Of a stretch of DNA of 64,000 nt, positions 5,986 through 48,640 are shown one piece after another; position 1 is the stretch's first letter; every line of letters begins with the position of its first letter. Made by a program: the position numbers and the translations under genes. The notes under the pieces were generated by a model. It was given only the letters and a program-made list of their open reading frames with translations, made no database searches and was not told where the DNA came from. The stretch is taken from the NCBI GenBank assembly GCA_015152525.1, contig SUTU01000006.1, positions 39,986 to 103,985 of the forward strand, in the 5' to 3' direction. Origin of the DNA: Cyanobacteria bacterium SIG28. GTDB taxonomy: Bacteria > Cyanobacteriota > Vampirovibrionia > Gastranaerophilales > Gastranaerophilaceae.

Positions 5986-6223
5986 AATAAAAATTTTCCT
6001 AATACTACCACTTTATAATACTAAGAAAACCTGTAAAAATATTTTTTGCTAGCTGTTTTTTATATAAAAATAGTTTATGCGCTCTACACATTTGTTTTCA
6101 TCATCTTAGGGGTAAATGGGGGGGGTAAATGTATTCCAGTTGGTTGGTGAGAGTTACAGGCTCTCACGTCATCCTCAGGGGTAAATGTATTTTGGCTGGT
6201 TGGTGTTGACTACCGGCTTATTT

Positions 6224-6341
6224 GTCATCCTCAAAACGTCAGCTTTGGGGATCCAGCCAATGTTAAAATTTGTGGAGATAAAAAACATAACCCAAATAAT
6301 TATTTAACAAGCTGGATCTCCGGACTTCGTCCGAAGATGAC
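6224..6341. repeat. REPIN-like inverted pair of ~33-nt REP-like units around a ~53-bp AT-rich spacer
   Basis: GTCATCCTCAAAACGTCAGCTTTGGGGATCCAGCC ... GCTGGATCTCCGGACTTCGTCCGAAGATGAC. The outer boxes and inner boxes are mutually complementary. Confidence 0.8.
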
Positions 6342-6452
6342 GGCAAGCCGGTAGTCTAATTTTGGAGGGAATGTGTGTTATTCAAATAAAAACTTATCAG
6401 TTTAATACACTTCTCACCCTACACAAATCTCGTGTCCAAATGTAGCTTATCT

Positions 6453-6569
6453 GTCATCCTCAAAGCGAAGCTTTGGGGATCCAGCCAATGTTAAAATTTG
6501 TGGTGATAAAAAACATAACCCAAATAATTATTCAACAAGCTGGATCTCCGGACTTCGTCCGAAGATGAC
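6453..6569. repeat. REPIN-like inverted pair, second tandem copy
   Basis: GTCATCCTCAAAGCGAAGCTTTGGGGATCCAGCC ... GCTGGATCTCCGGACTTCGTCCGAAGATGAC. Confidence 0.8.
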
Positions 6570-7040
6570 GGCAAGCCGGTAGTCTAATTTTGATGGGAAT
6601 GTGTGTTATTCAAATAAAAGCTTGTCAGTTTAATACACTTCTCACCCTACACAAATCTCGTGTCCAAATGTAGCTTATCTGTCATCCTCAAAGCGAAGCT
6701 TTGGGGATCCAGCCAATGTTAAAAAAGCATGAATAAAAACAGATTTTCCACACTACACAATCATCAAATTTAGACTTAAAAAATCATATTAACTTTTGTA
6801 AAACTTTCACTAAAAACTATAAAGTTTTTTGTAAAATGTGCCGTTATATTTCATGAAAATACTATTAAAAAATAACGAGGTATCTGAACAAGTAGGTTAA
6901 AGTTAAATAAGGTAATTTTTCCTCTATATGTATGATTTTTGAAAAATCTCTTAGTCCGTTTAGAGTATTTTTTTATAATTATTATTGAGGTTTTGTTACA
7001 AATTGTTACAATAAATTTGGATATCCCAAGGAAATTTTTC

Positions 7041-7910
7041 ATGAAAAAATTATTACTCACAACAATTATAGCTTTTGCGTTTTCTTGCGTTTCTGCGAGT
7101 GCAGCGATGGTAATGCTTGATTACATCGGTGAAACTCATGTAACGTCTAATAATATTGAACGCACTTTAATTGCTACCAGTGATGACGGAAAGGCATATA
7201 ATATTGCAATACGTCCTCTCGAAGAAGCTATTACGAATAGCGATGGTACAGTGTCTATACCGTTGGAGTATTTGTTTATTAACAACACAAAAGAGGATGT
7301 GTATCTAAAATATAATGAGTATTCGAATATATTCTGGGATACAACTTTGGATGTTGCGCCAAGGAATATGACAGCAAAGATTAAGGATTATGGTGTAGTG
7401 CCTGCCGGAGTTTATAGCATAACTTTGGAAGTTCAGGCGATTGATATTGAAACTCAGGATGTGGCAACAACTTCAAGTTTTTCATTGCAGTTTATAGTGC
7501 CGACATTCCACGAGTTGAACACTTATTCAGCAGCACCAGAAATAAAGGTTTCTGCTAAGGATGCTTTTACTAAGAACGTAAAAATCAAAAACGAAGTTTC
7601 ACCGATGATTTATATCCGTTCAAATACTGATTGGGTATTGTCTGTTGATACAACTGATTTTGCAGAGGCAGAAGGTAAATTTTATATAAAAACTGAATCT
7701 GCATCAGGAAAAGTTACATCAAGACTTTTGGAAAGAGCTTTGATAACACCTGATACACCGGAAATTATTATTGCAAGAGGTATTGCTCCTGCAGAAAACG
7801 AATTTGTTTCTGTTGAGTTTTCTATGGAAAACCCTGACGGTGGCTATATTCCGGCCGGTGATTACAATTACAAGGTGAAATATATTTTAAGAGAAGGTAG
7901 AGATAAATAG
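7041..7910 (+). CDS. Secreted two-domain pilin/adhesin-like protein, first gene of the fibre operon
   Basis: I prefer the ATG at 7041, which gives the signal peptide MKKLLLTTIIAFAFSCVSASA. The track start at 6939 adds a non-signal extension. Both halves end in a PAG-x-Y amphipathic strand (VPAGVYSITLEVQA, IPAGDYNYKVKYIL). Confidence 0.6.
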   Translation: MKKLLLTTIIAFAFSCVSASAAMVMLDYIGETHVTSNNIERTLIATSDDGKAYNIAIRPLEEAITNSDGTVSIPLEYLFINNTKEDVYLKYNEYSNIFWDTTLDVAPRNMTAKIKDYGVVPAGVYSITLEVQAIDIETQDVATTSSFSLQFIVPTFHELNTYSAAPEIKVSAKDAFTKNVKIKNEVSPMIYIRSNTDWVLSVDTTDFAEAEGKFYIKTESASGKVTSRLLERALITPDTPEIIIARGIAPAENEFVSVEFSMENPDGGYIPAGDYNYKVKYILREGRDK

Positions 7911-7931
7911 GTTAAGGAAAAACGAGGTACA

Positions 7932-8753
7932 ATGAAAAAGAAATTACTGGGAATTTTAATAGCAATGGCAATAGGCATACCGACATATGCTTCAGTATCT
8001 GTTGCACCAACAAGATTGGAGATTAATGCAAACAAGATAAGAAACAATTACGCTACCACTGCTATTGAAATTAGAGGGGATAAATCAAAAGCGACCAGAT
8101 ATAGAGTTTATTCCGGTTATTTCAAAATCTCAGATCAGTCTACTGTAGAAATTGTTGATAAAAACTCTGATATTTATGATATGTCTGACAAAATCCGTTA
8201 TGTTCCGTCAGAATTTACTATCCCACCTGGAAAAACTCAAAAACTTCGTGTAAATATTGCTAATATCAAAAATTTACCTGATGGTGAGTCAAGAGCAATT
8301 CTTTATATCGAAGATATTGAAACAAAAGAATACAATGTACCAAATAATTTGGGAATTGGCGCTCAGCTTATCTTAAAGACAAGAGTTGGCGTACCGATTT
8401 ATGTTGACAAAGGTAAATTTGTTAAAAAAGCAGACATTGAATATTTTAAAGTAGTTAAAAATAAAAAAGGTGATTACACAGAAATAAAAATCAATTCAAC
8501 AGGTAACAGCCGAGTTCGATATAACGGTATTGTACAAATAGTAAAAGGTAAAAAACTGATTGATGAATACTCTATTGAAGGTAGAGCTGTTGGTGAAAAT
8601 AACCACTATATAGCAAGAGATGCTATAAAAACTAAAAATCTAAAAGAAGCCGGAGAATACACCTTGAAACTGATATTATACTATCAAGATGAAAACGGCG
8701 TAAGAAAAAATATAAAAAAAGACGCAATATACAATGTAGATGGGAACATTTAA
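7932..8753 (+). CDS. PapD-like periplasmic pilus chaperone candidate
   Basis: Signal peptide, then SVSVAPTRLEI and FTIPPGKTQKLRVNIANIKNLPDGESRAILYIEDIE. This parallels the chaperone N-domain pattern (V.P.R.., PP.f.l.pg..q.lRi...lP.DrES...). A second beta-rich domain follows. Confidence 0.5.
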   Translation: MKKKLLGILIAMAIGIPTYASVSVAPTRLEINANKIRNNYATTAIEIRGDKSKATRYRVYSGYFKISDQSTVEIVDKNSDIYDMSDKIRYVPSEFTIPPGKTQKLRVNIANIKNLPDGESRAILYIEDIETKEYNVPNNLGIGAQLILKTRVGVPIYVDKGKFVKKADIEYFKVVKNKKGDYTEIKINSTGNSRVRYNGIVQIVKGKKLIDEYSIEGRAVGENNHYIARDAIKTKNLKEAGEYTLKLILYYQDENGVRKNIKKDAIYNVDGNI

Positions 8754-8775
8754 GTAAGAAAGGAAGGTACCCCAC

Positions 8776-9465
8776 ATGAAAATCTCTAAAATCACAAAAT
8801 TATTGCCTTTAGCTGTAGCATTTGTTATGGCAACAACAGGCGCTTATGCACCTGCAGGTGCAGCTACGGAGGCTACTAATACCACTCAAACGGCCAATTA
8901 TTCTCTAGACTTGCAACCATTCTTTGATATTGAAACTACATCTTCATCATTATCATCAACCACATCATTTAGTGGAAACTATACCGAATTAACTATGGAT
9001 ACAGCTTTAAATGCTACTTTCCAAGTAATTGGTAACCAAGTATCTCAATCTGTAGCATTATCTGCAACTTGTCCTGTATTTGATAGTGAAGATCAAAATG
9101 CTACAGGTGGTGCTTTGTACAATGTAGCTGAAGGTAATAATGCAGGTTTGAGAATTATTTTTGCTAACAGTACAAATCGACCAAGTGATTTAACCACAAT
9201 GAAAACAACTCATGCAACAGCATCAAGCCCTAATGCAATTGCATTTACATTGACACCAACTTATACTCATGAAGAAGCATCGTCTAATGGTTTCTTAAAT
9301 ACTCCTGCACTATCTGCTGATAAAATTGTTTACGAACTTCCAAACGGAAAACACACATTCCAATACGTAATTGGAACAACACCTATAGATAGTTCATTCT
9401 CTACACTTGATACTAACGGAACTTATACAGCAACATTAACATTGGCACAATATACTGCTCCTTAG
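8776..9465 (+). CDS. Secreted pilin-like subunit (Thr/Ser/Asn-rich)
   Basis: Signal peptide ...TTGAYAPAGA. C-terminal strand GTYTATLTLAQYTAP resembles the terminal G-x-Y-x-a-t-l strand of SCPU/Csu-type and other chaperone-usher pilins. Confidence 0.5.
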   Translation: MKISKITKLLPLAVAFVMATTGAYAPAGAATEATNTTQTANYSLDLQPFFDIETTSSSLSSTTSFSGNYTELTMDTALNATFQVIGNQVSQSVALSATCPVFDSEDQNATGGALYNVAEGNNAGLRIIFANSTNRPSDLTTMKTTHATASSPNAIAFTLTPTYTHEEASSNGFLNTPALSADKIVYELPNGKHTFQYVIGTTPIDSSFSTLDTNGTYTATLTLAQYTAP

Positions 9466-9478
9466 TTGAGGTAACAAA

Positions 9479-10099
9479 TTGAAAAAGCTTAATTTACTAA
9501 CAATTTTAATATTAGTAACAACTGTACTAACAGGTACAGGAAAAGCTTATGCAGATGCAGTGGCGGAACAAACACTTGGTGTGTTTGTTTCGCCTGCTGT
9601 TGATATAACAAAAACTTCATCTAATGAAACAGGAACAATGACTTTCAGCGGCTCTCATGAAGGTTTAAGTGCGTCTTTTGAAATCCTAAATAACAGTGCA
9701 GGTGAGAATTATGAGTTCCTTGTAGGTGCAAAAATAACAACTCTGGGTGGAGAAGTTTCAGGTTATACAAGTACAGGAGCTTTAATGTTTGGTAATACAT
9801 CAATTTTACCAAGTGGTGAAGCTGCTGAGGATGCCAGAGTAGGCGGTTCAAATAATATGAACGTTATAGCTTACCCTGTAACAATGAAAATTGATGACAG
9901 TTCAATGACGGTGAATTTTGAAGAAGGTAGAGCTTTTGACATTGGTACGGGGTGTTATGTAGTTAACGTTAAAAGCTCTCAAAGAGCAACATTGACTCAA
10001 ACAATTGGTACAAATCCGGTTAGCGGTTCGTATTCAAAAGGTGGCGACCAAGCCGGTACATACAAAGCAACGATATATTTTACATCGTTGAGTAACTAA
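9479..10099 (+). CDS. Secreted pilin-like subunit, distant paralogue of the previous gene
   Basis: TTG start, signal peptide ...TGTGKAYA, and C-terminal strand GTYKATIYFTSLSN. Confidence 0.5.
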   Translation: MKKLNLLTILILVTTVLTGTGKAYADAVAEQTLGVFVSPAVDITKTSSNETGTMTFSGSHEGLSASFEILNNSAGENYEFLVGAKITTLGGEVSGYTSTGALMFGNTSILPSGEAAEDARVGGSNNMNVIAYPVTMKIDDSSMTVNFEEGRAFDIGTGCYVVNVKSSQRATLTQTIGTNPVSGSYSKGGDQAGTYKATIYFTSLSN

Positions 10100-10383
10100 A
10101 ACAGCAATAAAAAACACGAATTGCGAGAAGATAAAGAAATTTTGTTAAAGTAGAAGAAAAGTTAAATAGAAAAGAACATAGGATGTTCGAAAACGGTGTA
10201 GGATTAAACTCACACCACCCTCAAAAAAACAGAGGGAAAGAAAAGGAAAATTCCAAGCGACGGATGGCTTGAAGTGGAACATAAAATAAAGACGTTAAAA
10301 CGTTAAAGCGTTAAGACGTTAAGTACATTAAAAGGTTAAAAGACAAAGGTAATAAAACCTTAAGTACTTAAAAATTCGGAAAA

Positions 10384-13300
10384 ATGTTAAATAGAATCAA
10401 GAAAAATTTAATATTGGCTATAGTTAGCGCCTGTTTATTGCAACCGGCGTTCGCTGGCAATGATTCTACAATCTCATATGTTAGCATTAATGATAAAGTT
10501 TACCAAGACGTTGAATTAATGATAACAAATGATGCGAAAATTCTTGTTCCTTTCAAACAATTAGCAGATATCTTTGAAATAACATATACAGCAAATCGTG
10601 TTGATAAAATTATTCAGTTCAAAACCATTGACGGAATTGAGGGTATGGTTAATGAACGTGGTGTATTCGTTGGTGATAAAGCTATACAAAAAAGAGCGCC
10701 AATATTCCTTCGTCAAGGGATTATGGATAATGTTATGAATGAAGCGTTTATTGAAGCTTCTACAGCAGAACAAATTTTTGGGATAAAACTCGAAACAGAT
10801 TATTCTTCAATAACAATTAATGCACAAGTTGACAGACAAATAGATGCTCTAAAATCTGCTCAAAGTTTGTATGAAGATGAAAATAAACCAAAGGCACACC
10901 TAGATGTTGTATCACCGAAAAAAGCAGGTAAAATAACTCTTAACAGAATTGGACTTCATAACAATACAATTAACGATAATTTAACTACAAAATACAGAGC
11001 TTATGAAACATCTGCTGAAACTTTTTATGGTAATACAGCTGTAAAATTTACCGGTGATTTCTATACCGGTAAATATCGTGCAGAAGCTAATATGTTCCAT
11101 TATGAAGACAATGCGTTTATGTTTGGCGGTTTATCTGCAACATATTTGAATAACTTCTCAACCAAAAAATTTGGTAATTATTGGTATGAAATTGGTCGTG
11201 TAAAAGGTAGAACCGATGTCGATGCTTCTATCGGTACAAATATTTTTGGTGCGCAAATCTGGAATTATGATTATGAGAAAAAACCTGCCTCTGAATTAAG
11301 CGGATATGTTAAACCAACAAGTTTAGTTAGAGTTACTGTTAACGATAATGAGCCTGTAACACTAAGCACATACGCAGGTTACTATACTTTATCAAATATG
11401 TATTTCCCAAAAGATATTAAAACAGTAAAAATCGAAGAAATAAACGAAGACGGTACTGTTGAAGTTGTAAAAGAAGAAAAATATTCCCTATACGGTGATA
11501 GACCTTTAGAAAACGAAAACAGAGGTTCTATGTATGCAGGTGTTTGGGGTTATCATAACCGTTTGTTTAGAGAAGGTTCTAATATTTATCGTGGTAATAA
11601 CAAAAAGGTTACTGCAGGTGGTTATTATCAACACGGTATCAAAGATAATGTAACTTTTGAATCTAAACTTACTGCTGATAAAATTTATGAAAAGAATGGT
11701 TCAAGTGTTTATCATGTAATTCCTACTAACGACGCTCTTTTAGTTACAGGTACTCAAAAGAACGTAAACTATTTAGAAGGTATTACAACTTTAAACAGCG
11801 TAGATTATGTAAGTAAAAAAGATACTAATTTAAAATTGCGTGGTACAGCGGGTGCAAGTATTGCACGTGATGTAAGAGATGAAGATACTCACTTGGGTTA
11901 TATTGTTAAAGGTACAGGTGAATATTCAAAGAGTTTAAACAAATTTGCAGGAAAAATATTTAAACCGAAAAATGCAAGAGTTAAATTAGAAGCTTATCAA
12001 ACATCACCTGATTTTTATATAGCAAGTTCTAACTCAACATCTAAAAACGACAGAATAGGCGGACGTGCAAGCGGTAGTTTATCATTTAATTCAACCAGTG
12101 TAAGCGGTGGTTATAATAAATATTATTCAAATATTAACAACCGTTACCAAGGCGGAACTATTAACTTTGATGAATATAACATCGCTGCAACAACAAAAGT
12201 GCCTAAATTTGCAACATTAAGTTATAGTATATTCCACAGACGTGGTTCAAATGATTTAGGCAGAAACAAAAACTACAATTTTGATGCAGGCGGACATCGT
12301 GATTTTGGCGTGTTTGGACGTATTCAAGCAGGTTTCAGAAGAAGTTTCTATGATACAAGATATGAAGAACCTACAACTTTAAATCGTAATTATTCATCAA
12401 TATTTAATGATACATATATTAACTATGATGTACCAGTACCAAAAATTAACGGTAAATTCAGACTATCTCATGATTTTATTGAATACAAAGCCGGTGGATA
12501 TAATAACAATTACAATATGTTCAGATTTGGCTATACATTCCCGGCATGGAAACGCTTAACTCTTGGTATAGGTTGGGGTTTCCGTTACCATGGTCGTGGC
12601 GGTAATGATATTAATGTTAGTTTAGGCTATAGAGCTAAATCCGGTCAAATGATGACTGTTGGATATCAGTATTCAGAAAACGGCGGTTATTTTATCGATA
12701 ATATGTTTATGCCAACAACAAACAGGCACTCAGTTAACTTTATATTCAATGATGCGTATCAATTATTCCAAAACGGTTTGAAATCTATCGGTAATGAAAA
12801 CGACGATAAAGGTATTTTTGACGCTATTGTTTATATTGATACAAACAAAAATGGCAAATACGATAAGAAAATCGATATTCCGGTTAAAGATATTCCGGTT
12901 CATACAGGCTGGTCAACAGGCGTAGAATATACTAATAAATCAGGTAAACTTACTTCTGCATCTTTACCGAGCGGGGTTTATAAAATTGGTTTAGATATGG
13001 ATACTTTGCCGATTACAGTTGCACCTCTTACGAATGATTTAATCTCAAAAACAGTAAAAATTGAAAACGGATTGGTTACAAGATTAGAATTTCCGCTTGT
13101 AAGTACAGTTGGTAGTGTTTCCGGTGTGCTTAAGATTACCGATGATTTTGAAAGAAAATTAAAAATAACAGATTTTATAGTAGTTATTGTTGATGAAGAA
13201 GGAAACGAAGTTAATTATTCAACTGTTACTTCTTCAGGTGAATTCTATATTTCAGGTTTAGCCCCTGGTAAATATACGCTTAAACTAGATGATAGCTATA

Positions 13301-13425
13301 TTAATGCTTATGGACTTGAAAAACTACAAAATGTGAGCGAAAGGACTATATTTATTCCGTATGATTACGAAAACCCAACAGATGTAATGAACCAAAACCT
13401 AGAGTATAAAACATTATCTCTGTAA
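10384..13425 (+). CDS. Large secreted, probable outer-membrane beta-barrel protein in the usher position of the operon; domain mix is atypical
   Basis: Signal peptide ...LLQPAFA. The N-terminal segment resembles a copper-amine-oxidase-N/stalk domain (ILVPFKQLADIF...). A ~600-aa Gly/Tyr/Asn/Arg-rich region shows alternating patterns. The C-terminus carries SdrD-B-like (YIDTNKNGKYDKKID) and CarboxypepD_reg-like (SGEFYISGLAPGKYTLKL) modules. Confidence 0.45.
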   Translation: MLNRIKKNLILAIVSACLLQPAFAGNDSTISYVSINDKVYQDVELMITNDAKILVPFKQLADIFEITYTANRVDKIIQFKTIDGIEGMVNERGVFVGDKAIQKRAPIFLRQGIMDNVMNEAFIEASTAEQIFGIKLETDYSSITINAQVDRQIDALKSAQSLYEDENKPKAHLDVVSPKKAGKITLNRIGLHNNTINDNLTTKYRAYETSAETFYGNTAVKFTGDFYTGKYRAEANMFHYEDNAFMFGGLSATYLNNFSTKKFGNYWYEIGRVKGRTDVDASIGTNIFGAQIWNYDYEKKPASELSGYVKPTSLVRVTVNDNEPVTLSTYAGYYTLSNMYFPKDIKTVKIEEINEDGTVEVVKEEKYSLYGDRPLENENRGSMYAGVWGYHNRLFREGSNIYRGNNKKVTAGGYYQHGIKDNVTFESKLTADKIYEKNGSSVYHVIPTNDALLVTGTQKNVNYLEGITTLNSVDYVSKKDTNLKLRGTAGASIARDVRDEDTHLGYIVKGTGEYSKSLNKFAGKIFKPKNARVKLEAYQTSPDFYIASSNSTSKNDRIGGRASGSLSFNSTSVSGGYNKYYSNINNRYQGGTINFDEYNIAATTKVPKFATLSYSIFHRRGSNDLGRNKNYNFDAGGHRDFGVFGRIQAGFRRSFYDTRYEEPTTLNRNYSSIFNDTYINYDVPVPKINGKFRLSHDFIEYKAGGYNNNYNMFRFGYTFPAWKRLTLGIGWGFRYHGRGGNDINVSLGYRAKSGQMMTVGYQYSENGGYFIDNMFMPTTNRHSVNFIFNDAYQLFQNGLKSIGNENDDKGIFDAIVYIDTNKNGKYDKKIDIPVKDIPVHTGWSTGVEYTNKSGKLTSASLPSGVYKIGLDMDTLPITVAPLTNDLISKTVKIENGLVTRLEFPLVSTVGSVSGVLKITDDFERKLKITDFIVVIVDEEGNEVNYSTVTSSGEFYISGLAPGKYTLKLDDSYINAYGLEKLQNVSERTIFIPYDYENPTDVMNQNLEYKTLSL

Positions 13426-13460: not shown

Positions 13461-13491
13461 AGCCGTGAGTTCGAAATCACGGCTTTTTTTT
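13461..13491 (+). terminator. Rho-independent terminator of the fibre operon
   Basis: AGCCGTGA-GTTCGAAA-TCACGGCT followed by T8. Confidence 0.8.
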
Positions 13492-13733
13492 GGGGGTAAA
13501 TGTATTTTATTTGGTTGGTATGAACTACAGGCTGTGCGTGGTGGTAGGGGTAAATTGGGGTAAATGGGGGTAAATGTAGGGACTGGTTGGTGAGAGTTGC
13601 AGGCTCAGCGTGGTGGTAGGGGTAAATGGGGGTAAATGTAGGGATTGGTTGGTGAGAGTTGCAGGCTCAGCGTGGTGGTAGGGGTAAATGGGGGTAAATG
13701 TAGGGATTGGTTGGTATGAACTACAGGCTGTGC
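13492..13733. repeat. G-rich tandem array of ~62-bp units containing GGGGTAAAT(G) decamers
   Basis: Units start at 13547, 13619 and 13681: GGGGTAAATGGGGGTAAATGTAGGGATTGGTTGGTGAGAGTTGCAGGCTCAGCGTGGTGGTA. Flanking partial units carry a TATGAACTACAGGCTGTGC variant. Confidence 0.9.
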
Positions 13734-13847
13734 GTCATCTTCAGCCGAAGGCTGGAGATCCAGCTGTTTAAAGAATTATTAGCGCTGTATTTTTTTCATA
13801 CTTCTTTAACATTGGCTGGATCCCCAAAGCTTCGCTTTGAGGATGAC
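13734..13847. repeat. REPIN-like inverted pair, same family as 6224-6341
   Basis: GTCATCTTCAGCCGAAGGCTGGAGATCCAGC ... GGCTGGATCCCCAAAGCTTCGCTTTGAGGATGAC. Confidence 0.8.
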
Positions 13848-13990
13848 AGATAAGCTACATTTAGACACAAGATTAGCGTAGGGTGGGAAGTGTGTTAAAC
13901 TGACAAGTTTTTATTCAAATTAACGCACATTCCCACCAAATTAAGCTGGTAGTCAACACCAACCAAACCAAATACATTTACCCCCCTCCC
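13848..13990. repeat. Reverse-complement copy of the 6178-6222 and 6368-6452 repeat segments
   Basis: AGATAAGCTACATTTAGACACAAG...CACATTCCC is roughly 85-90% identical by eye to the reverse complement of GGGAATGTGTGTT...TAGCTTATCT. The end, ...CAACACCAACCAAACCAAATACATTTACCCCC, is the reverse complement of the GGGGTAAATGTATTT..GGTTGGTGTTG module. Confidence 0.85.
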
Positions 13991-16398: not shown

Positions 16399-17187
16399 TT
16401 AGTTTTCTAAAAACAGGTTCATAAATTCGATATCATCGTAATCGATATAAGCTGTTTGCATAAGGTTTCTGCCTGTTTTTATAGTAACTTCATTAACTTG
16501 GTTTTTGCGGATTAAAACAGGCGGAATACGGACTCTTTGACCGTCGCCGTTAATTTGTACTTCTGCAATGCGGTTACCGTTAAAATAAATTTCCGGTGGT
16601 GATGAAAAAGCATTTGATATGCTGTTTTGACCGATATATCTTGCAACTTCGCTGTCTATACCGATGATTGAGCCTATAACAAGGTAAATAGGTTTGTTAA
16701 GTTTTAGGTTTTTTAGAGTAAACCTTTTAGTGTAAAAAGGACCGACACTGTCAAGCCTAAATTCGCCTGCATTGGCTGATAATTCGGAATACCTGTTATC
16801 ACCTAAATGATACATATTTGAATCTAAAACCATTTCGTGTGCATTTGTTTTTTCGATACCGACAACAATTGGGGCGGATAGTGTTTGATCAGAAATCGTA
16901 ACGGAATAGGGTTTGTAGTTTTCTTTTTGAACTGACATTATAGTAGGTCCGTTAATTTGAGTATTAAGTTCAAAGTATCCTTGGGAGTCTGTTTGAGTTG
17001 CGTATTGTTGTTTTGGAAGTGTAACTTTTGCACCGCTAACACCGTTACCGGTTCTTTTATCGATTATTCGACTTGAGTTTCCACGACCTTCAGCGCTCAC
17101 ACCTCCTTCAAAAGTTGCGGTTGCAAAGGTTGGGTTTAGTGTAAAAATTGTTATTAAAAATAGGAATAAATATTTTTTCATAAACAC
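16399..17187 (-). CDS. Secreted protein with a CarboxypepD_reg-like N-terminal domain
   Basis: Signal peptide ...LNPTFA, then IIDKRTGNGVSGAKVTLP...TDSQGYFEL...KENYKPYSVTI, a typical carboxypeptidase-regulatory-like fold signature. Confidence 0.5.
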   Translation of the reverse strand: MFMKKYLFLFLITIFTLNPTFATATFEGGVSAEGRGNSSRIIDKRTGNGVSGAKVTLPKQQYATQTDSQGYFELNTQINGPTIMSVQKENYKPYSVTISDQTLSAPIVVGIEKTNAHEMVLDSNMYHLGDNRYSELSANAGEFRLDSVGPFYTKRFTLKNLKLNKPIYLVIGSIIGIDSEVARYIGQNSISNAFSSPPEIYFNGNRIAEVQINGDGQRVRIPPVLIRKNQVNEVTIKTGRNLMQTAYIDYDDIEFMNLFLEN

Positions 17188-17748: not shown

Positions 17749-20700
17749 TTAACTCAATCTATATAATTTAACTTGATATTTTTTATTATCTGTTATTTTA
17801 TGTTCCTGCGTATCAAAATCTAAATATATATCAGCATCTTCTTCTGTAGTACCTATTATTTTCATTTGATGTTCTTTAAACTCAAAACCTTCAGTATTAA
17901 TTTTGTGCCTGTTAGGACCGGCGTAAATCGGAATATTTGGTTTTCCGACTTCTTTTGTAAGCTTTTTTGCGTATTCAATAATACCATCTCGAATTTGGTC
18001 ATTATATTGATATTTTGCTTTTGTCTCAATATTATCAAGTACTAATGATAATTCGCCATCAATACGTGCAAAATAACACATTGTATTTCCGACAAAATTT
18101 TCACCGTCTTTTATTTCAATAGCCGAGATGAGTTTGTTAAGAATATAATTTGGAGCAGTCCATGCATTGCAACTATCAATAGCTGTACAGCAACCGGAAT
18201 CACCACCAAGATTTAGAGCATGTTGGATATTATTCATATCAGCTTTTTGTATTGTGATAATCATTTCGTTTGAATTTTTAGTGTTTTTTACATTTTTTAT
18301 TTCGTTGTATCTAAGAATAAGTATATGGTTTTTTATTGTATTTTTTGCGGTTTCTATTTTAGGGTTCTTGTGTTGCTCAACCCAGAAAGGGTTATGATTA
18401 ACTACTTCTTTAAAAATTTTTACTATATTACTTAAATCTTCAAATCTAACTAATTCACCATTTTTAGTTAATTCTTTTGTTTTTTTATATCCGATAAACA
18501 GTCCATCATTATCATATTCTGCTTTTTCAATTTCAATAAGATTATAATTTTCTTTTCTTAATGCGGATAAAAGTTTATCAAATTCTTTTTGTGGTATTTT
18601 TGCCCATAATTCATCATTAAAATCTGCTTTGAAATTTTTTAAAATATTAGATTTTGTTTTATTGCTGAAAAGATCTATTTTGACTTCAATTTTAGAATTT
18701 GGATTAAATTTTGTGTATTTATTGTAGTTAATTTTCTCTCTTTTAAATTGTTTTTGAGTTTCTATATTATGCGGCATGAGATTAAATATTTCTAAATTGC
18801 TACATTCTTCATCTAATTGGTAAGAGTTTATGATGTTATTCATTTGAGTAATTAAATTTTTATATGCATTTTTAAAATCATTGTCAGCTTTAAAAAATAA
18901 CGGTATAAATTTAGAATTTGATAAATCAAAGCGTTCAAAAATGGATGGGTGTAAATCGTCTTTATAGTCATATATATCTGATAAAATCCTGTTTAAGAAT
19001 TTATTGCGCTCTTTAATTTCTTCTTTTGTTAAATTTTTTAAAAATGGTTTAAATTTTACAAGATATTTTTTTTCGTTTTCTTCTTGGTTTTTATCATTTT
19101 CATAAATTGTTTTATAAATATAAGCTGTTTTTATAGCTTCTTCCGGATCCTTAATGCTATTTTTTAACATTTGATTTTTTTCAAAAGTGTATTGGTTAAT
19201 TTTTTTTATTAAATAGTTTTTGTCTTTTTCTTCTGCAGCTTTTAATTCTTCTTTTAGCTCTGCAATTGCGCGAACTAAATCTTTATATTTTAGACTTTCA
19301 GTTGGGTTAAGTGCCTCAACTATTTCTTCAGAAAATTCTATGGGTTCAAACATTTCATCATAACTGTCATAATTTCCTAACTCCACAAAAAGCTGATCTA
19401 TTTCTGTGGCACCTTTAAGAAAAACATGTTTTATATTATTTTCACCTAATAATTTAAATAACTCATAAGAAATAGGTACCATACCCAGTATAAGTTCATC
19501 GATATCATCAATTTCAAAATCTTCGGTATCTGCAATGTTGTCTAAATTGTCCATGGCACATTTTCTTAAGTTCAACATCTTTTCAGCAGTTAAAGGATAA
19601 ATTAAAGTGCCAAATTCATCTTTTTTATTACTATAATTTGCGTGAAAACTGTTAACAAGATTTAAAATAAATCTTTTGTTAATATCCGGATTTTCTGCAC
19701 TTAATTTTTTTATTGTGTTTAGATAAGTTTCTTTTTCGGCTTTAGTTGCCAAATTTTCGTAATCAGGATAAAAGTAAGTATTTTTTTGGGTGTCTAAATC
19801 TTCTATACTCCAACCTAGCGGACGTAAATTTTTAAATAATAAAATTTTGTAAGGGTCAATCATTTTACCGGTTCTGCCATACTTAAAATATTCTGATAAA
19901 AATTCATCATCTAAACTTTCTTTAAAAAACTCGGTGTAGTTTTTATGTTGAACTGCTTCATTCATTGTTTGAATTGCATTGCTAAGATAATTTGAGTCCA
20001 TATCAGGTTTTAAGCTTTTGCATTCATTGAAAAGCGGTAACATTTCTTTAAAATATCCCGGAAAAATAGAGCTTTTGGCTCTAAAATTTTTTAATATTTC
20101 AAGAGGGCTTTCCGGTTTAAAATCTATAAATTTATCAAAATGAGAAATATCAGTGTTGTAATAGTAGCTTGTTCGCATTAGTTCCATAGCTACTTTTTTT
20201 CCGTATTGTTCGTATGATTTATCAAAAAATTCTTCAGAACCGTCAGCAAATTTGTGAGTTAGTATATCGCCTGAAAACAATACCAAATCTTTAATTTCTG
20301 TTGTTGAAAAATCAGGGTATTTTTTATATAAATTATTTGTTAAATCGTAATATCTTTTATCAAATTCACCTTCGTATGAATGTTGACTAAATATTTCAAA
20401 ACGTTTTCGGGTAAAAGAAGCTTTATCTCTGTTATCTTCCGGTATTTCTGAGGTCAAGCAACTAACCAGCATCATCATAGTTTCCGGTGTTTTAAGTTTC
20501 ATTGAAAGTATTTTTGAAAAAATGTTTGCTACTGCACTATTATTTAAACCAAGGTCGTATAATTTTATTATTTGATTTGCAATTTCGTTGATTAATTTTT
20601 TTTCACCAAAAAGTTTATATTTTAATTTGTCAATAAAATTTAACTTATCAAAAGTAGGTAAATAAAATTCAGAGGTTAATTTAATTTTATTAAGGTTATT

Positions 20701-20787
20701 TCCCTTAAAATTTGTTGAATTAATATTTGTTTTTGATAGTTTATTTGATTGTATATTATAGTTAATTGGGTTGGAAATTATTTTCAT
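17749..20787 (-). CDS. Large orphan hypothetical protein (1012 aa), Lys/Asn/Glu/Ile-rich, no signal peptide
   Basis: Long uninterrupted ORF in very AT-rich DNA with no motifs I recognise. The C-terminal ~170 aa contain a Cys cluster (GGDSGCCTAIDSCNAW). Confidence 0.6.
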   Translation of the reverse strand: MKIISNPINYNIQSNKLSKTNINSTNFKGNNLNKIKLTSEFYLPTFDKLNFIDKLKYKLFGEKKLINEIANQIIKLYDLGLNNSAVANIFSKILSMKLKTPETMMMLVSCLTSEIPEDNRDKASFTRKRFEIFSQHSYEGEFDKRYYDLTNNLYKKYPDFSTTEIKDLVLFSGDILTHKFADGSEEFFDKSYEQYGKKVAMELMRTSYYYNTDISHFDKFIDFKPESPLEILKNFRAKSSIFPGYFKEMLPLFNECKSLKPDMDSNYLSNAIQTMNEAVQHKNYTEFFKESLDDEFLSEYFKYGRTGKMIDPYKILLFKNLRPLGWSIEDLDTQKNTYFYPDYENLATKAEKETYLNTIKKLSAENPDINKRFILNLVNSFHANYSNKKDEFGTLIYPLTAEKMLNLRKCAMDNLDNIADTEDFEIDDIDELILGMVPISYELFKLLGENNIKHVFLKGATEIDQLFVELGNYDSYDEMFEPIEFSEEIVEALNPTESLKYKDLVRAIAELKEELKAAEEKDKNYLIKKINQYTFEKNQMLKNSIKDPEEAIKTAYIYKTIYENDKNQEENEKKYLVKFKPFLKNLTKEEIKERNKFLNRILSDIYDYKDDLHPSIFERFDLSNSKFIPLFFKADNDFKNAYKNLITQMNNIINSYQLDEECSNLEIFNLMPHNIETQKQFKREKINYNKYTKFNPNSKIEVKIDLFSNKTKSNILKNFKADFNDELWAKIPQKEFDKLLSALRKENYNLIEIEKAEYDNDGLFIGYKKTKELTKNGELVRFEDLSNIVKIFKEVVNHNPFWVEQHKNPKIETAKNTIKNHILILRYNEIKNVKNTKNSNEMIITIQKADMNNIQHALNLGGDSGCCTAIDSCNAWTAPNYILNKLISAIEIKDGENFVGNTMCYFARIDGELSLVLDNIETKAKYQYNDQIRDGIIEYAKKLTKEVGKPNIPIYAGPNRHKINTEGFEFKEHQMKIIGTTEEDADIYLDFDTQEHKITDNKKYQVKLYRLS

Positions 20788-23207: not shown

Positions 23208-24152
23208 ATGGCTATAACGATTAATACAAACATTTCTTCGTTAATTGCACAAAGAAACTTGCACAGTGCAACGTTATCTTTGAATGATGCAATAGAAAGA
23301 ATGACAACCGGTTATAAAATAAATCGTGCCAGTGATAATGCTGCAGGTTATTCAATTGCTAATCAATGGAGAATTCAATTGAGTTCATTGGATGTAGCTG
23401 CAGATAATGCTACAACCGGATCTGATTTATTGACTACAGCAGAAGAAACTTATAGTTTGTTATCAAGCCACATTCAACGTATTAGAGATTTGACAGAACA
23501 AGCTTCTAACGGAACTTATGGTTCTGCATCTTTGAAGGCTATCAAGGCTGAGGTTTTAGCGAGGTTACAAGAAATTAATCGTATCGGTTCAAATGCTGAG
23601 TTTAACGGTATTAAATTAATGGATGGAAAAGGTGTTGGCGCAAATGGTTTAGATTTACAAGTTGGTTTGCACAATGATGTAAATAGCCGAATTAATTTGA
23701 GTCAATCTTTATTTGCTGATGCTTCTATCTCAGGATTATTTTCCACTGCTTTAGAGCAAGTTAAAAAAGCTAACTCCAGTGTAACAGAATTAAACTCAAG
23801 CCTGGAAGATGTAGCTGCTGCTTGTGCCGGTTTAATGAAAAGCGGTTCTGATTATGTTCTTGGTGGCAGTACGGTATTAGCCAGAGATATGTTGGATTAT
23901 TTAGATAGCGCTATTGATGATATTTCAAAAAGAGCTATGGAAATTGGTGCTGCTCAGAATAGACTTGAATCAGCTATTACAGCTATAGATGTTCAATCTG
24001 AAAACTTAACTTCTTCATTATCTACATTAAGAGATGCTGATATTGCGGAAGAATCATCTGCTTATATTCAATCACAAATTCTGCAACAAGCTGCTGCAAC
24101 TTTGTTGGCAACAGCTAACCAAACACCAAGTATTGCATTGAATTTGTTATAG
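23208..24152 (+). CDS. fliC: Flagellin (short, 314 aa)
   Basis: The N-terminus MAITINTNISSLIAQRNL...RMTTGYKINRASDNAAGYSIA and the C-terminus GAAQNRLESAI...LRDADIAEESS...QILQQAA are canonical flagellin D0/D1 segments. Confidence 0.9.
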   Translation: MAITINTNISSLIAQRNLHSATLSLNDAIERMTTGYKINRASDNAAGYSIANQWRIQLSSLDVAADNATTGSDLLTTAEETYSLLSSHIQRIRDLTEQASNGTYGSASLKAIKAEVLARLQEINRIGSNAEFNGIKLMDGKGVGANGLDLQVGLHNDVNSRINLSQSLFADASISGLFSTALEQVKKANSSVTELNSSLEDVAAACAGLMKSGSDYVLGGSTVLARDMLDYLDSAIDDISKRAMEIGAAQNRLESAITAIDVQSENLTSSLSTLRDADIAEESSAYIQSQILQQAAATLLATANQTPSIALNLL

Positions 24153-27676: not shown

Positions 27677-29665
27677 TTAACCGTCCAAATCTACTCTTAA
27701 TACTTCATATATATCCATTTTATTAGCTTTACCACGAATTTGAACATCAGAAATTTTTATAACATCGGTAAAGCCTTTAACCTCTTCATAGGTAGTCGGA
27801 CTAATAAGAAGTTTAGTTTTGTATATTTTATTATAACTTTCCAAACGACTTGCAAGGTTAACCGTATCGCCTATAACAGTGTATTCCATACGATTAACTG
27901 AACCAATATTACCTACAAAAACTTCGCCTGTATTAATACCGACACCGATTTCTATTTTAGGTTTTCCTTCTTTTACCCATTTTTTTTGAAGTTCTTTAAC
28001 CCTTTGAAGCATAGCATAGGCACATTTTACTGCATTTTGTGCATGATTTTTATCTTGAATAGGTTCACCAAAAATCGCCATTACTGCATCACCAATAAAC
28101 TTATTAATTACACCATTGTATTTTGTAATTATAGGTTCCATTTCCGTAAAATATTCATTCAAAATTTCAGATACTTGTTGTGCAGTCATTTGTTCACTCA
28201 TTGTCGTAAACCCTCTAATATCAGAGAAAAGAACTGTAACAACAGATTTTTTTCCGCCCAAACCAAGATTATCAATATTTTGAACAACACGTTTCATAAT
28301 ATCTTCTGAAATATATTTTCCCATTGCAGTTTTAACTTTTTCTTTACTTTTGTTTTCAAGTACAAATTTGTGAGTATAAGCAAGAATTGTTGTTAAAACA
28401 AAGAAAATAACAGGTGTTAAAACGTTTATAATAATACCAAAATAGAAACAAATTGAACCCAAAACAAAGTATGCAAAAATTATTAAAAGAGTTGAAAATA
28501 TTGATTTATATAAATCAAAAATTCTTATAAACACATAAACAAAAAACATACCTAAAATTGTAAAAAGAATATTTATCCATTGTGGAATAACAAAAAGAAA
28601 ATCGTTATTCATAATATTATCAATTGCAGTAGCTTGAATATCCACACCGGGATGATTAACTGAAACAGGAGTGTTTTTGTTATCGTTCAAGCCTTCTCCT
28701 GCAGGAACATTTGCACCTATAAGAACAATTTTATCTTTAAAATTTTCAGGAGCTAAAATTGGTTTTTTGCCTTTTTTTATTGCATCATAAGATTCCATAA
28801 CATCTACAGCTGAATAATTTTTGTGAGAATATCCACTATCATATTGGCTATAAAATCTAAGCGGTGTTATTGTTTGATAGTAAGTTTTTCTTTGTCTGAT
28901 TTCATAATCTAAACTCGGGAATTTTATAGCCTTATTCGTTAACACAATTTCCGGATTATTATTTTCAAGCAAAAAAGTTTTCATCGCTAAAGATGGGTAA
29001 AATTGACCTTTATACCTAAAAAGATATTCGTGGTTTCTGTGATTTTCATCAATTGCCCAATTAGCGAGATTTCCGTTAATAAATCCTGGGAACATTGAAA
29101 CAGAACCGATATTTTTTACTGATTCAAAATAAGGTTTTGGAAAAGTCATAAAACTTTGATATGTATCCGGTGTTTTTGAAGTTTTATCAATTAGATTTAT
29201 GCCAAATTTTTGCGAGAAACTCTTATCTAAAATTTCACCTTGTTTTTTATCCCTATAAGATGTTAATTTAGGCATAAAACCAACAATAAGATTATCTAAT
29301 TTTTTCACTGAATTGAAAAATTTAGTATCCGAAGTCGGATTGTCTTTATCTAAAGTTGTTATAATCGCATCATAAACAATAAACTTTGGTTTTGCATGAT
29401 AAAGATAATCAAAAATTTTACAATATGACTCCCTTTTCCAAGGCCAGCGATGTTTTTCAACCGTTTTAGCGTCTATAACTATTAGTACAATATCATCACT
29501 ACCATATATTTTTTTATTTTTGTCAAAAGAAAATTTTTGGGTCAAAAAATTTTTTGTCATAAAATCATAAGCTTTTGGCTCTGCAAGATTATATGATAGA
29601 AAATAAATCACGATGAAAAGAAATATAATAACAAAAGTTGTCAGAATATGTTTAATCTTGTTCAT
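27677..29665 (-). CDS. Membrane-bound class III adenylate/guanylate cyclase with an N-terminal CHASE2-like sensor
   Basis: N-terminal TM helix, a ~330-aa extracytoplasmic region, and a cluster of TM helices. The cyclase domain follows (VTVLFSDIRGFTTMSE, KFIGDAVMAIFG, GVGINTGEVFVGNIGS...YTVIGDTVNLASRLE). Confidence 0.8.
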   Translation of the reverse strand: MNKIKHILTTFVIIFLFIVIYFLSYNLAEPKAYDFMTKNFLTQKFSFDKNKKIYGSDDIVLIVIDAKTVEKHRWPWKRESYCKIFDYLYHAKPKFIVYDAIITTLDKDNPTSDTKFFNSVKKLDNLIVGFMPKLTSYRDKKQGEILDKSFSQKFGINLIDKTSKTPDTYQSFMTFPKPYFESVKNIGSVSMFPGFINGNLANWAIDENHRNHEYLFRYKGQFYPSLAMKTFLLENNNPEIVLTNKAIKFPSLDYEIRQRKTYYQTITPLRFYSQYDSGYSHKNYSAVDVMESYDAIKKGKKPILAPENFKDKIVLIGANVPAGEGLNDNKNTPVSVNHPGVDIQATAIDNIMNNDFLFVIPQWINILFTILGMFFVYVFIRIFDLYKSIFSTLLIIFAYFVLGSICFYFGIIINVLTPVIFFVLTTILAYTHKFVLENKSKEKVKTAMGKYISEDIMKRVVQNIDNLGLGGKKSVVTVLFSDIRGFTTMSEQMTAQQVSEILNEYFTEMEPIITKYNGVINKFIGDAVMAIFGEPIQDKNHAQNAVKCAYAMLQRVKELQKKWVKEGKPKIEIGVGINTGEVFVGNIGSVNRMEYTVIGDTVNLASRLESYNKIYKTKLLISPTTYEEVKGFTDVIKISDVQIRGKANKMDIYEVLRVDLDG

Positions 29666-43772: not shown

Positions 43773-44891
43773 TTATTGAATATAGTTTAATAAACTCATA
43801 TTCATTGATGCTGAACTAACTTGCAAACTTGCTTGATAAGCATATTGAGCGTTCATCCATTGAGTAATGGCTTCCGCATAATCTATATCTTGAGTCTGAG
43901 AAAGATATGCAGTTAAGTTTTCGTTATTTGTTTCAAGAGTTGATGTTGTCATCTCCAAACGGTTTGCAATACCGCCGAATTTAGTTTGTTCTGTTGTAAT
44001 TGTATCCAATGAATTTGAAAATTCATCAAGACTTGCATTCATTTGGTCATAACCTTCTTGAACTTCACCGCCAAGAACCTTTTCAATACCATGGCTCAAC
44101 ATTCTTAAAGCACCTAAAACACCTGAATATTTTTCCTCACCGGTATAAACTTTTTCTAAATCAGTTGGTTTACCTGTATATTCAGAATCATCATCTTCAT
44201 AAGCATAAGTTTTTAAACCTGTTGCTTGATCAACTGTTTCTATAACTCTTCTATCGTTATCATTAGGATCTGTGAAAACTTTTTTGCCGTCATCATTAGT
44301 TTCCTGAACTTTTTCATAAGAACCGAAAACTCTATCACCTGTTGTATTGATAATTTCAAAAACGCCGTCAGATACTTCTGTTTGTCTTATGTAATCTTCA
44401 TTGGCATAAGGAGTTCCGTTGTATGTAATGCTACCATCTTCTTCAATTGTAAACGGAACTGTTTTAGTATTAGCGCCGGAAAAAATGTAGTTATCATTAT
44501 ATTCTGAATTTGCTAAATCAACTATTGTTTTTGCAATTTCATCAATTTCAACTTGTAAGGCTTTTAAAGAAGAATCATTATAAGTTTGGTTATTAGCTTG
44601 AATTGCTTTGTCCCAAGCCTTTGATAAATAACCGGAAGCTAATGAGAGCAAATCATCTAAAGCACTTAACTCTGCAGAAGCTAAACCAACATTTTCTTCA
44701 AAAATTTCAATTTGACCAAGCTGTTTATTTGTATTTAAAATATTTACAGTTGCAATCGGGTCATCAGTTATACTTGTAATTTTGTTTCCTGATGAAAGTT
44801 GTGCTGTTAATTTATTAAAATTATATTGATTCATTTGCATATCTGCTACTAATTGAGCATATCTTGAACTGGAAGTAATTCTATCTACCAT
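43773..44891 (-). CDS. flgL: Flagellar hook-associated protein 3
   Basis: N-terminal RITSSSRY...QLSSGNKITSITDDPIA and a flagellin-like C-terminal helix. Confidence 0.8.
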   Translation of the reverse strand: MVDRITSSSRYAQLVADMQMNQYNFNKLTAQLSSGNKITSITDDPIATVNILNTNKQLGQIEIFEENVGLASAELSALDDLLSLASGYLSKAWDKAIQANNQTYNDSSLKALQVEIDEIAKTIVDLANSEYNDNYIFSGANTKTVPFTIEEDGSITYNGTPYANEDYIRQTEVSDGVFEIINTTGDRVFGSYEKVQETNDDGKKVFTDPNDNDRRVIETVDQATGLKTYAYEDDDSEYTGKPTDLEKVYTGEEKYSGVLGALRMLSHGIEKVLGGEVQEGYDQMNASLDEFSNSLDTITTEQTKFGGIANRLEMTTSTLETNNENLTAYLSQTQDIDYAEAITQWMNAQYAYQASLQVSSASMNMSLLNYIQ

Positions 44892-44894
44892 TTA

Positions 44895-46625: not shown

Positions 46626-46674
46626 ATTTATTTACCTCAACAAAATATTTTGAAACCTTCGGATTAATCTAATC

Positions 46675-47175
46675 CTAGATTTCTTCATTTATTGTCCACA
46701 TGTCTAAATCATGTGTGTCTGTAGTTTTTCCTGCACCGTTATAGATACTTCCTTGAGGTGCAAATGCATTCACAACTGTTTCCAACATCTTGTTGGTAAT
46801 TATGATGCCATGTTTTATCAATTCCACATTTTGATTATTTAATAACACTAACTCGTCTAAAATTTTACAAATCTTAACTTTTCTTAACATTAAAGCTTCT
46901 TTTTGGTCAGGTTGATTTGCCTCTGCAAAGCTTATAAATTCTGACATTGAACCGTTTTTACCAAGCAGTTCTTCTGATATGTTTTTTCTTGAGTTATTTA
47001 GCTTAACAATTGTTTCGTTCATAGCTAAAATTTTATTATCAAGAACACCCAAATCATCAGTTTTAGCTTTTTTAAGAATTTCACGTTTTTCCTCAAAAAG
47101 ATTTCTAAGGTTTGTGTAAGCATCTATTTCTTTATCAAGTATTGTTATTAATTTTCTAAATTGTGTTGAATACAT
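46675..47175 (-). CDS. flgN: FlgN-like flagellar export chaperone
   Basis: 166-aa helical protein sitting immediately upstream of flgK. The LITILDKEIDAYTNLRNLFEEKREIL pattern matches the FlgN family. Confidence 0.55.
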   Translation of the reverse strand: MYSTQFRKLITILDKEIDAYTNLRNLFEEKREILKKAKTDDLGVLDNKILAMNETIVKLNNSRKNISEELLGKNGSMSEFISFAEANQPDQKEALMLRKVKICKILDELVLLNNQNVELIKHGIIITNKMLETVVNAFAPQGSIYNGAGKTTDTHDLDMWTINEEI

Positions 47176-47190
47176 CTATAAAACCTCTAA

Positions 47191-47805: not shown

Positions 47806-47815
47806 ATTTCCTCCA

Positions 47816-47947: not shown

Positions 47948-47949
47948 TT

Positions 47950-48237: not shown

Positions 48238-48250
48238 TTATTTTCCCTTT

Positions 48251-48601: not shown

Positions 48602-48640
48602 CTTTTCCTTTCATTAAGTCTTTAAGACGTTAAATTCGTT

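Follow-up and report, generated by a model that had tools for sequence, protein, structure and literature searches.

The window analysed here, a stretch of 64,000 nucleotides (nt) from Cyanobacteria bacterium SIG28 (contig SUTU01000006.1, positions 39,986 to 103,985), contains an operon of five genes on the + strand, g1 to g5. We consider it likely that this operon encodes a deeply divergent chaperone-usher-type pathway, in which g5 is the outer-membrane component that secretes, and probably polymerises, the subunits into a surface fibre. The host belongs to the Gastranaerophilales, which are widespread, uncultured gut relatives of cyanobacteria. A chaperone-usher-like operon had been proposed at this position from the letters of the DNA alone (hereafter, the original prediction), and this proposal is now supported by the predicted folds of g2 and g5, by remote homology, and by the co-conservation of the five genes.

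The five open reading frames (ORFs; all coordinates are positions within the 64-kb window) begin with g1 (7041-7910; 289 residues, counted from MKKLLL), a secreted protein of unassigned family that is a candidate minor or tip subunit. It is followed by g2 (7932-8753; 273 residues), a periplasmic two-domain immunoglobulin (Ig)-like chaperone that is PapD-like or WxLIP-like and has no membrane anchor; by g3 (8776-9465; 229 residues), a secreted Ser/Thr/Asn-rich protein and the candidate major subunit; and by the g3 paralogue g4 (9479-10099; 206 residues), also a secreted subunit. The last gene, g5 (10384-13425; 1013 residues), encodes the usher-like outer-membrane protein. Sec signal peptides with a basic n-region, an h-region (12-residue Kyte-Doolittle mean 2.3-2.9) and an A-x-A-type site are present in all five proteins, and in none of them does a transmembrane-helix-like stretch follow the signal peptide (19-residue Kyte-Doolittle maximum <=1.19). 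An intrinsic terminator on the + strand (13461-13494), with an 8-bp stem containing 5 G-C pairs (13461-13484) followed by T7, closes the operon. The same-strand ORFs with their signal peptides and the terminator were thus all recovered as originally predicted, and the motifs quoted with them were all present, none being mislabelled. The usher gene is separated from the subunit genes by an A-rich spacer of 285 nt (10100-10383), in which a search for a + strand terminator detected none. A spacer of roughly 100-900 nt is found at the g4-g5 position in other species too, and it might set the subunit-to-usher expression ratio.

As judged from its modelled fold and from profile homology, g5 is a remote usher homologue. 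Ushers consist of an N-terminal domain, a 24-strand barrel, a plug located between strands 6 and 7, and then two C-terminal domains, CTD1 and CTD2. The AlphaFold2 model of g5 opens with an alpha/beta domain (residues 26-148; 10459-10827), which is not PapC_N and which stands where ushers have their N-terminal domain. Then come six long strands in antiparallel arrangement (185-293), a small beta domain of six strands (306-366), a further 18-19 or so long strands (379-764) and, last, a pair of Ig-like domains (812-1000). The predicted barrel region as a whole (10936-12675; residues 185-764) has about 24-25 long antiparallel strands, a count that is approximate because the model is of low confidence and its template-modelling (TM) scores are low. 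The plug-like small beta domain (11281-11493; residues ~300-370) follows the sixth barrel strand, and the two C-terminal Ig-like domains (12811-13383; residues ~810-1000), which are SdrD_B-like and CarboxypepD_reg-like, stand in the position of CTD1 and CTD2.

FimD and PapC account for all of the 17 top Foldseek matches of the g5 model (E 4.5e-20 to 9e-8). The first non-usher class begins at E 1.4e-7; far lower in the list stand SdrD, which is matched by the C-terminal Ig domains, and below it TonB-dependent receptors. This ranking bears on the alternative that the operon is an assortment of unrelated secreted and outer-membrane proteins, with g5 as a porin or TonB-independent transporter bearing decorative Ig domains, g2 as a generic Ig-fold protein, and their resemblance to known systems as a convergence of folds. 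TonB-dependent receptors and porins do occur in the g5 list, at E 6e-5 and weaker, as such an assortment would have it, but the usher matches are at least 12 orders of magnitude better than those of other barrel proteins, and the plug sits at an usher-specific position.

Profile comparison points in the same direction. An exhaustive profile search with g5 returned 323 relatives, many of them full-length and distant, and a diversified g5 profile (A9), built with 22 of these relatives, aligned with an E. coli usher profile at 96.6% hhalign probability (E 5.3e-10) over 617 columns comprising the barrel, plug and C-terminal domains. Even with the shallow g5 alignment, for which the hhalign comparison with five E. 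coli ushers is insignificant, the plug stretch is aligned (g5 280-362 with FimD 271-358); for usher and chaperone profiles alike, the similarity turned significant once distant homologues had been added to the alignments. Given this homology, an unrelated assortment appears very improbable. The original prediction saw no usher features in g5, a statement contradicted by the 17 FimD/PapC matches, the plug after strand 6 and the 96.6% alignment, and its suggestion of a novel outer-membrane exporter is not supported. Its Gly/Tyr/Asn/Arg-rich putative barrel, on the other hand, was borne out: these four residues make up 34% of the middle region (185-764) versus 21% of the background, and the model shows a large beta-barrel.

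It is in its periplasmic N- and C-terminal domains alone that g5 departs from known ushers. Canonical ushers have a PapC_N domain, whereas the N-domain of g5 is instead weakly Cu_amine_oxidN1-like, to judge from its distant homologues. In Pfam searches, Cu_amine_oxidN1 is weakly detected at the N-terminus of six of nine such homologues (best E 7.7e-5, 23.0 bits versus a cut-off of 24.2) and is undetectable in the window g5 itself, so that the originally proposed copper-amine-oxidase-N-like domain is seen, weakly, in the distant homologues only; taken together, the domains that the original prediction assigned to g5 are broadly correct. The C-terminal domains of g5, again in contrast to canonical ushers, score as SdrD_B (E 4e-6) and CarboxypepD_reg (E 8e-5). 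Both matches lie under the Pfam gathering scores, and together with the two Ig domains of the model they uphold the SdrD-B-like and CarboxypepD_reg-like modules named in the original prediction. The same pair is found at the C-terminus of all nine distant homologues, with several matches above threshold, and in a sequence search of the PDB the g5 C-terminus matched an SdrD B-domain. A CarboxypepD_reg-like domain (E 2e-9) of the same type is also present in a secreted 260-aa protein encoded at 16399-17181 (- strand), ~3 kb downstream of the operon beyond recG.

The predicted chaperone, g2, was modelled by AlphaFold2 as two beta-sandwich domains with a mean predicted local distance difference test (pLDDT) score of 84.4 (alignment of 37 sequences), and Foldseek agrees with this model on the two-domain PapD-like fold that was first proposed. 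The top PDB match is the WxLIP of E. faecium (9i1y/9i25; E 1.4e-10), 9i25 being a WxLIP-WxL complex. Next come CsuC, CupB2, CfaA, FimC, Caf1M and PapD (E 2e-9 to 5e-7), and the Foldseek probability is 1.00 for WxLIP and for all the chaperone-usher chaperones. The TM-scores to the latter are only 0.36-0.43, probably because the domain angle differs. In PapD, Arg8 and Lys112 are the basic cleft residues that anchor the subunit C-terminus. Possible counterparts in g2 are a basic residue at predicted mature position 8 (Arg or Lys in 37/37 sequences) and a basic pair in a G1-like strand, AQLILKTRVGVPIYV, in which K149, T150 and R151 are invariant across the 37 sequences. Both elements align to FimC R8 and the FimC G1 strand, in an alignment that is insignificant alone; a profile of g2 plus three distant relatives matches E. 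coli chaperones with 84% probability (E 7.5e-6), over the N-domain only. Pfam gave no PapD_C match on g2, and no WxLIP match at E up to 1.

On this evidence, the resemblance of g2 to the Gram-positive WxLIP (DUF916/DUF3324) is no weaker than its resemblance to PapD, and what sets g2 apart from WxLIP is that it has no membrane anchor. WxLIP is defined as DUF916 (PGBD) plus DUF3324 (HBD) plus a C-terminal transmembrane helix, and AlphaFold2 predicts that a WxLIP strand is inserted into WxL (PMC10599100). In the WxL/WxLIP (Csc) clusters of Enterococcus, Lactiplantibacillus and Listeria, one two-Ig protein is grouped with two paralogous small secreted proteins, as here; the clusters in PMC10599100 list WxL proteins and WxLIP only. 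These similarities might suggest a WxL/WxLIP-like display system in a diderm host rather than a pilus, with g2 stably bound to g1, g3 and g4, and with g5 exporting or anchoring a non-polymeric adhesin or a short oligomer. The structural match to WxLIP, including the 9i25 complex, speaks for such a display system, as does the 95.4% hhalign probability between the g2 profile and a DUF916 protein of Arthrobacter. However, the C-terminal transmembrane helix that defines WxLIP is absent from g2, and the partner protein g5 is a usher homologue; ushers have no known function other than ordered polymerisation and secretion.

The host envelope is a further point of difference from WxL systems. The same window contains the Pfam-confirmed genes of the L-ring protein FlgH (47194-47805) and the P-ring protein FlgI (48644-49741), and an outer membrane, and therefore a diderm host, is indicated. 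The close homologues of g2 and g5 are without exception from metagenome-assembled gut genomes of Gastranaerophilales (Melainabacteria / Vampirovibrionia), including HUM_10 and 'Acinetobacter sp. CAG:196', which is a mislabelled Melainabacteria genome. A scan for g5 with one genome per species gave 54 species-level loci, all from Gastranaerophilales, at 53-73% identity of g5, and tblastn showed that the order g1-g2-g3-g4-g5 is kept wherever the flank is long enough (~45 loci), which answers the question of co-occurrence raised with the original prediction. Because the flanking genes differ between species, the five genes are regarded as a conserved module. Identity between species is highest for g5 (56-73%), followed in rank by g2 (46-66%), g1 (39-69%), g4 (30-52%) and g3 (28-39%), the fastest-evolving gene of the operon. 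This is the gradient to be expected of a system in which g2 and g5 are the machinery and the structural subunits g3 and g4 are exposed.

The putative subunits g3 and g4 are paralogous (BLASTP E 1e-5; hhalign 99.5%, E 1e-22), and the mature subunits have ~180-200 residues. Their best-conserved stretch is a C-terminal G-x-Y-x-A-T-h-T strand, which reads GTYTATLTLAQY in g3 (conserved as FSThDTxGTYxATLTLT) and GTYKATIYFTSL in g4; the corresponding strand of g1 is AGDYNYKVKYIL. A regular expression confirmed the G-x-Y motif at the ends of g1, g3 and g4 and its double occurrence in g1 (residues 122 and 272), both as originally described; only 4 of the 47 window ORFs of at least 120 residues have it in their final 25 residues, and three of these are g1, g3 and g4. 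SCPU subunits have a similar C-terminal strand, G-x-Y-x-x-T-h-T. The broader pattern [AGSN][GDNS]-x-Y-x-x-[TKE]-h, ~15 residues from the C-terminus, occurs in g1, g3 and g4, in SCPU-like proteins, in one of two DUF4402 proteins, and in subunits of three distant clusters (L065, L068 and L072, see below), and it is the sole feature common to g3/g4 and the SCPU-like and DUF4402 subunits. Past the signal peptide, g3 and g4 show alternating hydrophobic residues that end near a proline, a sequence pattern compatible with a donor strand without proving one. All three subunits had been described as Thr/Ser/Asn-rich, which is true of g3 (34%) and g4 (30%) and not of g1 (22% versus a background of 20%). 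The lack of tryptophan in g3 and g4 also bears on the display alternative, as WxL partners carry a WxL domain with two Trp-x-Leu motifs; no WxL domain match was obtained, g3 and g4 have no such motif, and a lone W-x-L in g1 is at most a lead. Combined with the usher homology of g5 and the outer membrane of the host, this leads us to regard a WxL-like display system as unlikely.

For g1, its motifs make a two-domain tip subunit a reasonable guess and no more. The protein has two beta-rich halves, each ending in P-A-G-x-Y, and the second half contains the one W-x-L, which is invariant (W198). No significant similarity was found between g1 and either g3 or g4, between its two halves when these were compared for an internal repeat, or between g1 and a 319-aa protein of the distant cluster L067, and the gene, retained throughout the Gastranaerophilales at the identities given above, is absent from more distant clusters.

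Genomic context was examined for six distant g5 homologues (L064, L065, L067, L068, L072 and L073). A g2-type chaperone lies beside the usher-like gene in five of the six (hhalign 98-100%), accompanied by small secreted subunits, and the persistence of this pairing in very distant relatives argues against an unrelated assortment of proteins. L065 has a 279-aa chaperone (99.9% to g2) and a 208-aa g4-like subunit (97%); L073 has a chaperone (100%) and a g4-type pilin (95%); L072 has a chaperone (99.9%) and two small subunits; L067 has a 331-aa chaperone (98.5%) with subunit-like genes on both sides; and in L068 a 168-aa subunit accompanies a chaperone of 311 residues that is homologous to g2 (98.1%, E 1.2e-13). 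The L068 chaperone exceeds the Pfam gathering score for WxLIP_HBD (31.1 bits), with WxLIP_PGBD weak, which favours the display alternative; no transmembrane helix is found in the sampled distant chaperones, L068 included, which does not. When the L068 chaperone was compared with plasmids by tblastn, the matches were mostly annotated fimbrial chaperones, plus one DUF916 protein. A large protein search started from the distant ushers alone returned mostly Ig-repeat proteins.

Two further observations concern subunits. One small subunit gene of L072 (4423-4962, - strand) has a 'faint' precomputed Pfam match to Fimbrial_CS1, the family to which the major subunits of alternate chaperone-usher pili belong, and this match hints at ties of some wider-class subunits to known pilin families. 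On the Arthrobacter sp. YA7-1 plasmid pYA7-1a (L071, 4067-6372), a DUF916 protein with a C-terminal transmembrane helix is encoded between two small secreted proteins that have a G/N-W-x-x-S-V motif and a C-terminal x-Y-x-A-T-h-T motif. This looks like a WxL-type cluster outside the Firmicutes, whose subunit C-termini resemble those of g3 and g4.

A parallel in gene order is provided by plasmid pE5SP1 of Polaromonas sp. E5S, which is from another phylum and was among the tblastn matches of the L068 chaperone; on it, DUF4402, hypothetical, DUF4402, 'molecular chaperone' and 'carboxypeptidase-like regulatory domain-containing protein' genes follow one another, so that subunits, chaperone and outer-membrane protein are arranged as in the operon. 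The plasmid-encoded chaperone shares homology with the g2 family (98.1%, E 8e-14), and the 893-aa outer-membrane protein aligns with g5 over the C-terminal Ig pair (98.1%, E 9.5e-14) and from the N-domain through the plug (82-88%, E about 1e-5), with no significant alignment of the central barrel. As in the operon, Pfam sees neither PapD_N in the Polaromonas chaperone nor Usher in the 893-aa protein. The Polaromonas subunits, by contrast, are clear members of DUF4402 (PF14352; 78-96 bits), a family that g1, g3, g4 and their orthologues do not match (hhalign <=0.7%).

These comparisons place the locus in a broad, unannotated branch of chaperone-usher-like systems with interchangeable subunit families, whose chaperones lie between PapD-type chaperones and WxLIP. 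A bolder extension, which we put forward tentatively and hold to be possible rather than probable, is that the operon clusters and the DUF4402-type clusters together form an ancient, distinct class of chaperone-usher machines, whose chaperone is a diderm ancestor or sibling of WxLIP and whose product is a new fibre. If so, WxL display in Firmicutes and Actinobacteria would derive from a chaperone-usher system, as a version that is anchored in the membrane and has no usher, or the derivation would have run the other way; the fibre of the Gastranaerophilales would be built from a pilin fold unrelated to Fimbrial, SCPU and DUF4402; and in the usher a copper-amine-oxidase-N-like domain would have taken the place of the chaperone-docking N-domain.

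The photosynthetic cyanobacteria, which are the sister group, are already known to have chaperone-usher clusters whose parts Pfam recognises (PMC4390875). Among the cyanobacterial SCPU, PapD_N and Usher clusters is cccS-cccP-slr0019. The operon shares the logic of these clusters and of archaic (sigma) and classical pili such as Csu of Acinetobacter, CupE, and Fim and Pap of E. coli, namely Sec-exported subunits, a two-Ig chaperone whose predicted model has the fold of CsuC, FimC, PapD and Caf1M, and a plugged barrel that matches FimD and PapC. However, a sigma-type cluster of Leptolyngbya passes the PapD_N and Usher thresholds easily and the SCPU threshold nearly, whereas the operon reaches no such threshold; the Leptolyngbya cluster is also more distant from the operon (91% to g2, 36% to g5) than is the Polaromonas cluster. 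The CT pili of Microcystis also come from a cyanobacterial lineage, and their cluster encodes a pilin together with a pilin-like paralogue, a putative adhesin rich in beta structure, and an outer-membrane protein proposed as a usher analogue (PMC12397347). The CT pilin is ~12 kDa and O-glycosylated, the cluster includes an O-GlcNAc transferase and a methyltransferase with no chaperone listed, and the authors found pilin homologues solely in photosynthetic cyanobacteria (PMC12397347). The identity of the operon with CT pili was rejected, since pilin size differs and the CT cluster has glycosylation genes and no chaperone. Lipoprotein-type (type V) pilins were rejected because no signal peptide has a lipobox, and a sortase pilus or other Gram-positive envelope structure was rejected because FlgH and FlgI show an outer membrane.

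Several results weigh against a chaperone-usher-type pathway. The Pfam models of PapD, Usher and pilins all remain below threshold for the operon proteins, as the Pfam comparison suggested with the original prediction now shows: PapD_N on g2 reaches E 0.012 and 16 bits against a cut-off of 23, and Usher, PapC_N, PapC_C, Fimbrial, SCPU, DUF4402 and WxL have no match in the five proteins or their orthologues. For g5 the three usher models were absent at E up to 1, and for its nine distant homologues at E up to 0.1; no NCBIfam model recognises any of g1 to g5. That every Pfam match is sub-threshold, and that confidence in the g5 model is low (pLDDT 61.8, predicted TM-score 0.46), with TM-scores to ushers of just 0.2-0.39, are also the points that an unrelated assortment has in its favour. 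Shallow, family-only alignments gave insignificant hhalign results against E. coli ushers and chaperones (5-11% probability), yet the stretches aligned are those expected. Near L064, one of the distant g5 homologues, a chaperone was sought and none was found.

The subunits are the part of the operon with the least resemblance to known systems. No similarity of g3 and g4 to known pilin families was found, and the classical Cys pair of known pilins is absent from the operon subunits; g1 has no detectable relatives outside the Gastranaerophilales, and its fold is unassignable. Pfam gave no matches for the subunit orthologues (48, 45 and 41 sequences). In hhalign comparisons, g3 and g4 reached <=12% against E. 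coli pilins and <=3.5% against SCPU-like and DUF4402 sequences, the latter comparison having little power because the reference subunit families fail to match each other. Actinobacterial proteins adjoining DUF916 showed no similarity to g3 and g4, profiles of which matched no PDB chain, and PDB sequence searches with g2, g3 and profiles A1-A5, A8 and A9 returned nothing besides the SdrD B-domain match.

Building on the folds, remote homologies, synteny and outer membrane described above, we infer strand complementation, docking, polymerisation and an adhesive role for the chaperone-usher-type pathway as follows. All five proteins are exported by Sec, as their signal peptides show. In the periplasm, g2 would bind g3, g4 and probably g1, and would cap a presumed incomplete beta-sandwich in each subunit with its G1-like strand or hairpin, while its conserved basic residues would hold the subunit C-terminus. 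The chaperone-subunit complexes may then dock on the periplasmic N-domain of g5, whereupon the plug would shift and the subunits could pass through the pore, each becoming linked to the next when the N-terminal strand of that neighbour takes over from the chaperone strand. The expected product is a surface fibre in which the fast-evolving g3, g4 or both would predominate and g1 might be a tip or minor subunit; it would probably serve in adhesion or aggregation in the gut.

Inverted repeats bracket the operon. The upstream block (6120-6738) is inverted relative to the downstream block (13492-13986), which holds inverted copies of the upstream repeat, and the inverted arms 6608-6738 and 13790-13920 are 91% complementary over 131 nt. 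Within the upstream block, a 228-nt tandem repeat occupies 6241-6696 together with the start of a third copy; this block contains 56-nt GGGGTAAATGTA...TGGTTGGT units, and GGGGTAAATGTA...TGGTTGGT units occur on both sides of the operon. Two repeat motifs searched in the 64-kb window were confined to the two operon-flanking blocks, and one of them, searched in 73 loci, was found in none. The bracketing repeats could mark a mobile cassette, an invertible segment or a strain-specific miniature inverted-repeat transposable element.

Elsewhere in the window, a large flagellar block (43773-57005, - strand), which holds the FlgH and FlgI genes, seems, from N-terminal sequence, to include rod and hook-associated genes too, and a Pfam-confirmed flagellin gene lies separately at 23208-24149, in the + strand stretch 23208-24152. 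The lowest-GC part of the window, at 18-22 kb (26% G+C versus about 33% elsewhere), holds a 1012-aa ORF (17749-20787, - strand) that had no Pfam match at E up to 0.001 and that might have been acquired recently or be evolving fast. A CHASE2-domain adenylate/guanylate cyclase is encoded at 27677-29665 (- strand; CHASE2 E 1.5e-35, Guanylate_cyc E 3e-30). Regulation by cAMP is known for cccS-cccP, the chaperone-usher-like genes of Synechocystis; a tie between the cyclase and regulation of the operon would be pure speculation. An Rfam search of the whole window found one tRNA only.

In open-access papers and bioRxiv, no report was found on chaperone-usher systems in Melainabacteria, consistent with the original remark that such pili were not known to have been described in this lineage, and none linked WxL or WxLIP to ushers or PapD or mentioned DUF4402; these absences are weak evidence because the literature searched was limited to those two sources. 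The Gastranaerophilales genome papers that were found mention flagella and type IV pili as the only surface appendages.

Overall, these findings indicate that the chaperone-usher family extends past the reach of current Pfam and NCBIfam models, and surveys based on such models, for example with secretion-system scanners, probably undercount systems of this kind. g5 shows that a usher can bear different periplasmic domains, and the locus provides a bridge in sequence and structure from PapD-type chaperones to the Gram-positive WxLIP, by which the origin of WxL display becomes testable. The operon is thus of relevance to annotation, to the evolution of chaperone-usher and WxL systems, and to the biology of an uncultured gut lineage, in which a conserved surface-assembly operon whose subunits evolve fast must count as a strong candidate both for the means by which the Gastranaerophilales attach in the gut and for what the host immune system meets.

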